A stretch of DNA of 64,000 bases. Source: Escherichia phage YJin-2024a. This document shows positions 5,415 to 7,778 of this stretch, piece by piece. Position 1 is the first letter of the stretch. Each line of letters starts with the position of its first letter. Both the position numbers and the translations under genes were made by a program. The notes beneath the pieces are model-generated. The model searched no databases, was not told the origin of the DNA, and was given only the letters and a program-made list of their open reading frames with translations. Location of the stretch: sequence record PP534475.1, one strand, 5' to 3'.

Positions 5415-5489
5415 TGGCCGAGGTGACAGGATTCGAACCTGCATAAAGGAATTTAGAAGACTCCTGCCTCTCCCTTAGACTACACCCCG
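5415..5489 (-). tRNA. tRNA-Arg (anticodon TCT)
   Basis: Acceptor CGGGGTG/CACCTCG, D-arm GTCT-AAGGGAG-AGGC, anticodon stem GGAGT/ATTCC with loop CTTCTAA, T-arm GCAGG-TTCGAAT-CCTGT, CCA. Confidence 0.7.
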
Positions 5490-6286
5490 TTTAAGTATTT
5501 TTAAGAACTCTCGTAAAAACTCTTAAAAATACAGACGATACCGGGAGAGTCATAAGTCTCACTCATTAAGTATTTCAAGACAAAATACAGTAACGTCTAT
5601 TATTTTCCAGTTTAAGTCAGGGTGACTTAGTGGTTATGTCCTGCGGTATATTGAGGACTCGGTTAGGCTTGGGGTCATGACTTCCCACCTTTTGCTGCTA
5701 CTCAACAGGAGTTATCGCGAATTACCTGTGCTATTGTGCACCATTAGTGACATCTCTCATGTCAGCATTTCCCACTTTGTGGATAGCTTGAAAAACTACT
5801 CCGATATGGAGAAAGAACTTCACTATCCTAGAATACCTTCTAAAGTTCTTCTTTAGCCTGGACATAGTTAAATCGTAATAAAACTATTCAGCAGACTGGT
5901 TGGTTAGTCTGGAACCAACTACCGCGTGGTTTAGGCAGTGCGCAACTAACCTCGGAAGCTTTTACATTAAAAGCACCAGTTATCCAGTTCTTACCGACCG
6001 TAGGACTCGAACCTACATCTTCCACCAGTTACGGCTTGATAATACCAATTATACTAGGACGGCAGTGTTACTACATAAGTGATTTCCACACCCCACTATT
6101 TATAAATTAGAGAAGAGTTTAGGGGAGAGGTTTCAGACGCCTCATTTTACACGTTCTAGCCACTAACCGGGATTGCCGCCCCCTGTGTACTAGTTTTACA
6201 ACTAACCCACCGACTCTATTCAATGCGCTCCGGTTGGGATTCTGCACTCAGCGTAATCGGCTCGCTGTTCTCTAATTTATGAATAT

Positions 6287-6315
6287 ATTATACAGAATTT
6301 AAAGGCATTTAGCAA
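6287..6315 (-). promoter_or_regulatory. T5-type early promoter (TTGCTA-17-TATAAT) firing into the ORF-free region 5490-6280
   Basis: Minus-strand consensus hexamers with AT-rich upstream element; -35 lies 9 nt after the stop of the 6324-6767 gene. Confidence 0.6.
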
Positions 6316-6323
6316 ATAAATTT

Positions 6324-6767
6324 TTAATTAAATTCGCCAGCAATCTGAGCAGCAGTACCGCCATCATAACGCCCAGGAAATTCTTCCTTAATCGCTTTCA
6401 TCAGCATACCCTTTGTAATTCCAGGGTTTAGCTTAACTAATTCTGCAAAGTATTTACGAATCTCAGTATCAGATAACTGAGGAGGCAGATACTCCTGCAA
6501 CCACTTATTTAGAATGTATTCATACTGAGCGGACTGCAAGCTATAACTATCAAGATCTTGACCATGAAGTTTAGCTTTCATCTGGTTAATGCTTTTTAGT
6601 TGCGCTTTGAGATAAGACACAAATTGTTCAGAAGTGATGAAATCTTTATCAATACGCTGAAGATCCCCGATTATGGTCTGATAGCTTTTAGCGACTTCTT
6701 TATCAGAACCATTAAACTTAGAATCCTGCAAAGCTCTACGCAAAACATCTAAAATATTCTCTTCCAT
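6324..6767 (-). CDS. YqeY/GatB-C-terminal-domain-like protein
   Basis: C-terminal GMLMKAIKEEFPGRYDGGTAAQIAGEF resembles the GatB/YqeY motif. Confidence 0.5.
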   Translation of the reverse strand: MEENILDVLRRALQDSKFNGSDKEVAKSYQTIIGDLQRIDKDFITSEQFVSYLKAQLKSINQMKAKLHGQDLDSYSLQSAQYEYILNKWLQEYLPPQLSDTEIRKYFAELVKLNPGITKGMLMKAIKEEFPGRYDGGTAAQIAGEFN

Positions 6768-6937
6768 TATTTCATTCCTAACGCTTGGTTAAAAGATTGT
6801 TCTGTCATAACTGCTGAGACTTTGGCGAAATCAAACTTTTTAGGGTTTGTAGTGATTTCAGCAACGTTAGAAGTTTTAACAGTTTTCGTAGTACGAATAC
6901 CGCGAGTGTTAACACCAATAATTACAACTGATTTCAT
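6767..6937 (-). CDS. small hypothetical protein (56 aa)
   Basis: ORF below track threshold; stop overlaps next start (TAATG); promoter at 6969-6997 upstream. Confidence 0.35.
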   Translation of the reverse strand: MKSVVIIGVNTRGIRTTKTVKTSNVAEITTNPKKFDFAKVSAVMTEQSFNQALGMK

Positions 6938-6968: not shown

Positions 6969-6997
6969 ATTATACGGAAATTTAAATATTTAAGCAA
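6969..6997 (-). promoter_or_regulatory. T5-type early promoter TTGCTT-17-TATAAT
   Basis: Consensus hexamers on the minus strand with AT-rich upstream region. Confidence 0.6.
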
Positions 6998-7005
6998 GTA
7001 AATTT

Positions 7006-7473
7006 TTAAGTTTTAGTGACAACAGGTTTATAGAATGTATGTCCCTTAATCTTAGTTGTTTTCTTAAATTTCTTTGTCCAGTAAGGTTTATCTTTACCAC
7101 TATGGAAGTATAGTGCTCCATATGTAGGATCTTGTGGTAAATCAACGTAGTATATCACTCTAGCTAAATTCTTAGCGGTTTGCCAAGCCTCATCAGTTTT
7201 ATCAACTTTTGGTCTCTTAGATACCCAAGAGAACTGGTTAGACTGATATACTACTTTACAGTAGGAATCTGGGAATTTACCGGAGTTTACACGGTTTTTA
7301 GTAACATGTGCAATCGCCGTCATTCCCTTTATGCCCTCACCACGACTCTCGAAATAGATATTTTTAGCAATGCAATCTATTTCTTTTGCATCGTGCGATG
7401 CCTGACTACTAAAGCTGAAGGTAAGGGCAGCTACTAAAAGCAAAGCTGCCTTCATTCTTTTTACTCCTGCCAA
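7006..7473 (-). CDS. secreted SleB-family cell-wall hydrolase
   Basis: Signal peptide MKAALLLVAALTFSFSSQA; NIYFESRGEGIKGMTAIAHVTKNRV matches the SleB hydrolase motif. Confidence 0.6.
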   Translation of the reverse strand: MAGVKRMKAALLLVAALTFSFSSQASHDAKEIDCIAKNIYFESRGEGIKGMTAIAHVTKNRVNSGKFPDSYCKVVYQSNQFSWVSKRPKVDKTDEAWQTAKNLARVIYYVDLPQDPTYGALYFHSGKDKPYWTKKFKKTTKIKGHTFYKPVVTKT

Positions 7474-7778
7474 TCATATTCAACACGATTGGGATTTTCT
7501 TTATACCCTAAGTCAAGCAAATCATTACGCATAGTTTGCTTAGCTACTGGGTTCGAGGTTACTAGTACCACTTTCTTTGGTCTCTGCCCAAATTCTAAGA
7601 GTAAACGAAGAATTTGATAACCTTCCATACCATCTACAGCTAAGTCATTATCCATATAAATGAAGTGGCCTGTGGTATCAGTTTTATTCAGAAACTCTAC
7701 AGCGGCTTCTGGGGTTCGAATGATAATGTCCATTCCGTGAAGATTACGCACATCATCAATCAAAATATGAAAAGTCAT
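7461..7778 (-). CDS. CheY-like receiver (REC)/flavodoxin-fold protein
   Basis: HILIDD, YMDNDLAVDGMEGYQIL and VVLVTSN align to REC Asp-pair, phospho-acceptor and Thr positions; overlaps hydrolase gene by 13 nt. Confidence 0.45.
   Translation of the reverse strand: MTFHILIDDVRNLHGMDIIIRTPEAAVEFLNKTDTTGHFIYMDNDLAVDGMEGYQILRLLLEFGQRPKKVVLVTSNPVAKQTMRNDLLDLGYKENPNRVEYDWQE

Follow-up and report, generated by a model that had tools for sequence, protein, structure and literature searches.

The window analyzed here is a stretch of 64,000 nucleotides (nt) from Escherichia phage YJin-2024a (sequence record PP534475.1), and the gene in question is an open reading frame (ORF) at 6324..6767 on the minus strand. 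The call gives an ATG start and 147 amino acids (aa) plus a stop codon, in agreement with an earlier note on this DNA, which had placed the gene at the same position. The encoded protein is a homolog of T5.081 of phage T5 and, based on the profile comparisons below, a stand-alone, non-catalytic, all-helical two-domain member of the YqeY family. The N-terminal domain (N-domain; codons 1-96, 6480..6767, minus strand) is helical and hypervariable; it holds the conserved sequence GDLQRIDKD and the start of a junction motif, YLPPQLS, at residues 93-99. The C-terminal domain (C-domain; codons 97-147, 6327..6479, minus strand) is similar to the tail of GatB and GatE, with a GRYDG motif at residues 132-136. 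Read from upstream to downstream on the minus strand, the gene order is cREC_REC, cell-wall hydrolase, DUF7616 and YqeY, and a tRNA region follows. Because the protein is carried by 454 phage records (tblastn), and because both of its domains are under purifying selection within the allele class of the window (ratio of nonsynonymous to synonymous divergence, dN/dS, 0.04-0.24), the YqeY gene is real and functional.

Family membership is indicated by several profiles. The Pfam YqeY profile (PF09424) aligns with residues 90-142 of the protein (profile positions 83-138 of 143; E=1.7e-5), although the score of 25.4 bits is just below the gathering cut-off of 27 and the C-terminal third alone aligns. 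This match, which is not in low-complexity sequence, bears out the C-terminal resemblance to a GatB/YqeY domain reported in the earlier note. Close homologs of the window protein carry a precomputed PF09424 match, and PHROG_1460 covers the whole protein (3e-47). A profile built from 31 T5-like homologs (A1) has YqeY of B. subtilis (1ng6) as its best PDB match, colinear over residues 8-138 versus 6-141 (E=0.0065), and recovers 776 proteins at E≤0.001 from 1.84 billion representatives. Among the best 150 of these 776 relatives, nearly all are 135-155 aa long and match from end to end; Pfam YqeY is matched by 51 of 58 sampled relatives (E<0.001). A second profile (A2), to which the relatives found with A1 were added, matches three YqeY structures over their full length (1ng6, 2.9e-23; V. 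parahaemolyticus 8xjg, 2.9e-20; C. jejuni 8xje, 3e-15), and it also matches the C-terminal tail of GatE (1zq1_C, residues 553-626; E=1.8e-5). Both family motifs are present, [YF]LPxQL[ST] where the two domains join and G-x-[AY]-D-G within the hairpin of the C-terminus: YLPPQLS aligns with YLPEQLS of 1ng6, and GRYDG aligns with GKADG of 1ng6 and of GatE. The window protein has the two-domain, all-helical organization of the YqeY fold. It is acidic (isoelectric point, pI, 5.5; net charge -2).

Neither the gene nor the domain is new. The window belongs to a Tequintavirus. The 2.7 kb compared around the YqeY gene are 100% identical to Salmonella phage SaI_NFG_5581 (Demerecviridae, Tequintavirus), and 449 phage records match them at 80% identity or more, almost all of these from T5-like phages of Salmonella and Escherichia; YqeY-like ORFs are listed for T4-like phages too. 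The gene is annotated in hundreds of records, and the idea of a role in tRNA charging has already been published; our literature search for T5.081, and for ‘tRNA amidotransferase’ among T5-like phages, found nothing. Labels on the records include hypothetical protein, ‘tRNA amidotransferase’ (the RefSeq name of T5.081 and many homologs), ‘recombination related exonuclease’ and ‘YqeY protein domain-containing protein’. The exonuclease label was probably transferred from another gene, and an exonuclease gene lies ~2.4 kb upstream in the identical phage record.

The commonly used name implies that the protein is a tRNA-dependent amidotransferase of the GatB type, as is stated in many database records and in the name of PHROG_1460 (‘tRNA amidotransferase’). 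We reject this reading and see practically no chance that it is correct. The 147 residues are fully used by the YqeY fold, which has room only for the non-catalytic helical and tail parts, and the structural matches are to stand-alone YqeY proteins and not to GatB. In a Pfam scan of the window protein, no GatB catalytic family matched at E≤1, and neither did GatB_Yqey (PF02637), the profile that the earlier note had named as the check on its domain assignment; homology to the GatE tail emerged only with the family profile. NCBIfam gave no match for the YqeY, DUF7616 or cREC proteins. The annotation of the identical phage record shows no GatA, GatC or GatD gene within the 16.7 kb surrounding YqeY, and no dedicated search of the whole window was made for them. 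The tRNAs nearest to viral YqeY genes, among the matches listed in the scan described below, have no consistent identity and show no preference for Gln or Asn. In E. coli and Salmonella, direct charging is the route for tRNA-Gln and tRNA-Asn and no GatCAB substrate is known, which also counts against an amidotransferase. Since the GatB catalytic domain is missing, the label ‘tRNA amidotransferase’ is wrong, and without a catalytic GatB part mischarged tRNA cannot be amidated by the window protein. This name and the older ‘recombination related exonuclease’ should both be replaced by ‘YqeY family protein’. A regular-expression search of the window protein found no GatB-type lysine-rich tail motif (KxGKxK), a motif reported as missing from YqeY C-domains in general (PMC2811023).

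All tRNA genes near YqeY lie on one side. The first canonical tRNA downstream, tRNA-Arg(UCU) at 5415..5489 on the minus strand (ARAGORN; Rfam, 49.3 bits), is 835 bp from the YqeY stop codon, and beyond it Ser, Met, Leu and Tyr tRNAs extend to position 3 on the same strand as YqeY (ARAGORN and Rfam). ARAGORN finds no tRNA at 6767-64000. In T5, there are 15 tRNAs in the 10 kb downstream of the YqeY gene and none in the 10 kb upstream, and throughout T5-like loci YqeY is the last protein gene ahead of 15-21 tRNAs. Because every tRNA is downstream, YqeY borders the tRNA region at its upstream edge and is not inside it, as is also the case in T5 and BF23. The description in the earlier note of a gene embedded in the tRNA cluster is therefore right about the association, but not about the position.

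We asked how general this association is with a hand-made degenerate DNA pattern for M-K-x-x-K-x4-G-x-Y-D-G, which was used to scan IMG/VR. There are at least 120 matches, and 109 of the 120 listed encode YqeY by hidden Markov model; the counts for viral loci given here are among the matches listed. A tRNA lies within 3 kb in 36 of 90 non-T5 viral YqeY loci and within 500 bp in 18 of 90, both of which are lower bounds because many loci have short flanks. In all 36 loci (36/36) the nearest tRNA is on the same strand as YqeY, and several of these genes are 0-200 bp from arrays of 10-29 tRNAs. After clustering at 50% identity, 21 of 35 non-T5 viral clusters have a tRNA within 3 kb and 10 of 35 have one within 500 bp. 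By comparison, none of 18 control positions in viral contigs has a tRNA within 3 kb (0/18 vs. 21/35; Fisher p=1e-5), a null that is not matched for contig size and is small because a control pattern with Y and D swapped gave only 7 sites in the whole viral collection. The same pattern identifies 55 YqeY genes in bacterial and archaeal genomes, mostly in assemblies of Bdellovibrionota, Leptospiraceae and Bacteroidota. Of these cellular genes, 7 of 55 have a tRNA within 3 kb, which equals the background of non-YqeY matches (9/66) and is much lower than the viral figure (p=4e-6). There is good contextual support, then, for a linkage of phage YqeY to tRNA genes across many unrelated lineages that cellular copies of the same subtype do not share. 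Contrary to our first assumption, this ‘GxYDG’ subtype is not confined to phages: assemblies of Bdellovibrionota, Leptospiraceae/Turneriella and Bacteroidota (bacterial contigs L160-L279) commonly have it too, near neither tRNAs nor the ribosomal protein gene for bS21.

Genes that recur around YqeY in non-T5 phages include several with roles in RNA or tRNA metabolism. PTH2 peptidyl-tRNA hydrolase is encoded in 4 loci (1e-36), with a PTH2-like family below threshold in 7 more; other neighbors are an RNA ligase with a PHA02142 OB domain (6 loci), a metallophosphoesterase (5), DUF2828/DUF7788 (4) and GIY-YIG homing endonucleases. In unrelated large phages, PTH2, the PHA02142-OB RNA ligase and DUF2828/DUF7788 flank YqeY (L109:5711-6178, L133:1162-2394, L066:310-1734 and related loci). 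Together with the tRNA arrays, these genes look like a recurring tRNA-maintenance neighborhood. PTH2 of large phages has been proposed to function in ribosome rescue after tRNA cleavage (PMC7824862).

A position next to tRNAs could also be expected of a ‘translation module’, in which YqeY, like its cellular namesake from the rpsU (bS21)-yqeY operon, would be a factor for the ribosome or for translation initiation, with the 30S subunit or mRNA selection, and not tRNA, as its target. Bacterial yqeY often follows rpsU, with which it is co-regulated and possibly translationally coupled (PMC13374519); the YqeY and bS21 genes often form one operon, and according to preliminary evidence OLE RNA is bound by YqeY jointly with bS21 (PMC12054373). 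In the window, too, YqeY is coupled to a small gene ahead of it, one of 56 aa. That gene, however, encodes DUF7616, and there is no adjacent bS21 gene in the window. Searches with an E. coli bS21 sequence found a bS21-like ORF in only one viral locus, 3.6 kb away from YqeY, and in none of the 55 cellular loci of the same subtype (0/55). On this balance we regard a ribosome-directed function as improbable. The single viral case (L115:4381-4545) is a peptide that shares 54% identity with E. coli bS21 across 55 aa and adjoins a tRNA called Pyl by ARAGORN; it could be a phage-borne ribosomal protein or come from a misassigned bacterial contig.

The two domains of YqeY differ strongly in conservation among T5-like phages. 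Relative to the DT57C-type phage L024, nucleotide identity is 98-100% at 7480-6821, falls to 38-68% at 6760-6461 (codons ~3-102) and is 76-86% over the C-domain and the promoter that follows it. T5 shows the same pattern of nucleotide divergence; the compared set also included L022-L027 and L030. At the amino acid level, identity between diverged T5-like alleles is 30-48% for the N-domain and 73-88% for the C-domain, while the DUF7616, hydrolase, cREC and SPFH proteins are mostly 95-100% identical across T5-like phages. Some of the YqeY genes are domain mosaics: in L021, a window-type N-domain (synonymous divergence, dS, 0.02) is followed by a C-domain of foreign origin (dS 1.14). Purifying selection within the allele class, saturated dS between classes and the domain mosaics all indicate that YqeY alleles are old and that recombination, breaking at the boundary between the domains, has shuffled them. 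We found no evidence for positive selection on the N-domain, given the within-class dN/dS of 0.04-0.24 and the saturation of dS between classes.

Taken as a whole, the context suggests that the T5.081-type protein probably helps to handle tRNA. More specifically, we propose that it may serve as an adaptor for tRNA or a tRNA-like RNA, with the C-domain on the RNA and the N-domain on a partner, a reading to which we give a probability of about 0.5. The conserved C-domain would touch the elbow of tRNA, or a tRNA-like RNA, through the G-x-Y-D-G hairpin, which corresponds to the GatB pocket proposed to bind the tRNA D-loop. For the GatB/GatE tail, D-loop binding through a conserved pocket around the G-x-A-x-P hairpin was proposed from a docking model, small-angle X-ray scattering and mutants (PMC2811023). 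The variable N-domain would provide the docking site for a partner protein, candidates for which are a phage or host tRNA-handling enzyme and a host tRNA-targeting defense factor. The expected outcome would be that infected cells keep a usable set of tRNAs, by way of protection, repair or delivery. The idea of a tRNA-related role has been voiced before, for gp65 of phage pf16 (PMC5587285). The tRNA-related role that the earlier note had read from gene position is supported in its general form by context, through the viral clusters and the PTH2 and RNA ligase neighbors. Of its more specific suggestions (chaperoning, protection or charging fidelity), all of them candidates, one is unlikely, and amidation of mischarged tRNA is excluded by the lack of a catalytic GatB part.

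Several observations weigh against an RNA adaptor. A pI of 5.5 and a net charge of -2 are unusual for an RNA binder, and the one isolated YqeY module to have been tested biochemically, that of D. radiodurans glutaminyl-tRNA synthetase (GlnRS), neither shifted tRNA nor acted in trans (PMC1865053). Aim41, a member of the YqeY superfamily, serves as a structural bridge in complex I of the yeast Pichia (PMC12487887); it has no tRNA context and no known tRNA role. The tRNA regions of large phages are known collecting places for small accessory genes and homing endonucleases, so that the adjacency of YqeY and tRNAs may partly reflect tolerated insertion sites, and the null against which tRNA proximity was judged is limited, as noted above, by its 18 sites and unmatched contig sizes. 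Mosaicism is also not unique to YqeY, because other nearby genes have rare, deeply divergent alleles (cREC, 51% identical in L017 and L026; hydrolase, 68% in L013).

Many of these points would fit a protein-protein adaptor or anti-defense protein with no RNA role, in which the YqeY fold is a mere helical scaffold, as in Aim41, and the tRNA vicinity results only from a region that tolerates accessory genes. An acidic protein and an isolated module that does not bind tRNA (PMC1865053) are both consistent with such a scaffold. An N-domain divergence island in which old alleles recombine at the level of domains is what genes caught up in conflict between host and phage typically show, and GIY-YIG homing endonucleases are the commonest neighbors in other phages. 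On the other hand, the tRNA linkage is seen in no fewer than 21 separate viral clusters, with the nearest tRNA in every case on the YqeY strand, and neither cellular copies nor control sites show it. Also, the most conserved surface of the protein is the hairpin that matches the GatB pocket proposed for D-loop binding, and the other recurrent neighbors, PTH2 and RNA ligase, have tRNA or RNA as their substrate. We consider a scaffold without an RNA role unlikely.

Within the tRNA-handling reading, a free tRNA chaperone seems less likely than a partner-dependent adaptor. The latter is favored because the protein is acidic and the isolated module was negative in trans, and also because the C-domain is conserved and the N-domain variable. 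A more elaborate form of the adaptor would be a counter-defense guardian of tRNA, in which the C-domain clamps the elbow of tRNAs or of the stable RNA known as RNAX (see below), and the rapidly exchanged N-domain blocks a host tRNA-cleaving defense nuclease or recruits a repair enzyme such as the cREC phosphoesterase, RNA ligase or PTH2. We view this version as speculative and rather unlikely. If it were true, the allelic diversity of the N-domain among near-identical T5-like phages would record an arms race with host systems, and the phage protein would provide a first handle on the role of the cellular YqeY family.

The genes upstream of YqeY form a compact series on the minus strand. The DUF7616 gene (6767..6937; 56 aa, a T5.082 homolog) is translationally coupled to YqeY, whose ATG is preceded by AGGA and overlaps the DUF7616 stop codon as TAATG. 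Ahead of this pair lies a T5-type early promoter, TTGCTT-17-TATAAT (6969..6997, minus strand), found by direct reading of the sequence and resembling other promoter copies; T5 has ‘P-D/E 33’ annotated at the equivalent spot, ahead of T5.082. YqeY is made early, jointly with the DUF7616 protein, from a T5-type promoter of its own. The Hydrolase_2 cell-wall hydrolase (7006..7473, minus strand) is between DUF7616 and cREC_REC and overlaps the cREC gene by 13 nt. The cREC_REC gene itself (7461..7778, minus strand; Pfam PF20274, 1e-14), a T5.084 homolog, is two genes upstream of YqeY. A role in processing cyclic phosphate RNA ends has been proposed for the cREC domain, which elsewhere is tied to RNA ligases (PMC7824862).

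Directly past the YqeY stop codon, a promoter scan identified TTGCTA-17-TATAAT (6287..6315, minus strand), which is the ‘P16-17’ annotated in T5 and BF23. In those phages P16-17 starts RNAX, then tRNA-Arg and then the remainder of the classical tRNA gene region. The equivalent non-coding stretch of the window is at 5490..6273 on the minus strand; RNAX is annotated as a ‘stable RNA’ in BF23 (AJ604530) and T5 and is driven by P16-17. Besides one tRNA-like element, no protein gene or Rfam family explains the stretch at 5490-6273. The element (5992-6063, minus strand) scores 34.2 bits with the Rfam tRNA model (cut-off 29) and is missed by ARAGORN in the window; it is probably a degenerate or non-canonical tRNA. 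For the same element in T5 and L039, ARAGORN gives a 74-nt ‘tRNA-Ser(ACT)’, which is too short for a genuine serine tRNA.

The RNAX stretch also contains a segment of ~155 nt (6112-6269) bounded by an inverted repeat, ATAAATTAGAGAA...TTCTCTAATTTAT. The segment is missing from T5 and DT57C-type phages. A 171-nt query that spans it is covered to 80% or more by 128 phage records, and the presence of the segment is independent of the YqeY allele. We rejected it as a structured RNA, as its folding z-score is only -1.5 and a match to Rfam Hrs13 is far under threshold.

Phage tRNAs defeat host tRNA-cleaving defenses, e.g., PARIS and retron systems, and phage tRNA regions have recently become important for this reason. 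A protein whose gene accompanies tRNA arrays in a wide range of unrelated phages, and not in cells, is a reasonable candidate for a counter-defense accessory factor, and T5 is a tractable model in which to study it. YqeY is a widespread family with solved structures. As a discovery this is an ordinary finding of modest interest, to which the variable N-domain and the tRNA linkage peculiar to phages add a little.

Comparison with known systems places the window protein as follows. Its nearest relatives are T5.081 and the homologs of T5.081 in BF23, DT57C and other Demerecviridae, with pf16 gp65 as the T4-like counterpart. The window allele is only 50% identical to T5.081 (N-domain ~33%, C-domain ~80%), whereas the flanking DNA is 94% identical. 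The C-domain is homologous to the tail of GatB and GatE, but the catalytic cradle domain of these enzymes is absent. In D. radiodurans GlnRS, a YqeY appendix raises tRNA affinity only in cis, fused to the enzyme (PMC1865053); the module worked only when covalently attached, while the window protein is free-standing. Aim41 of fungal mitochondria shows that the YqeY fold can serve purely as a protein-protein scaffold. Cellular YqeY proteins (1NG6, 8XJE and 8XJG) have GKADG, with Ala, where the phage clade has GxYDG, with Tyr, and the N-domain of phage YqeY is hypervariable among close phages. Finally, the cellular gene has its context in the rpsU operon, and the phage gene in tRNA arrays.
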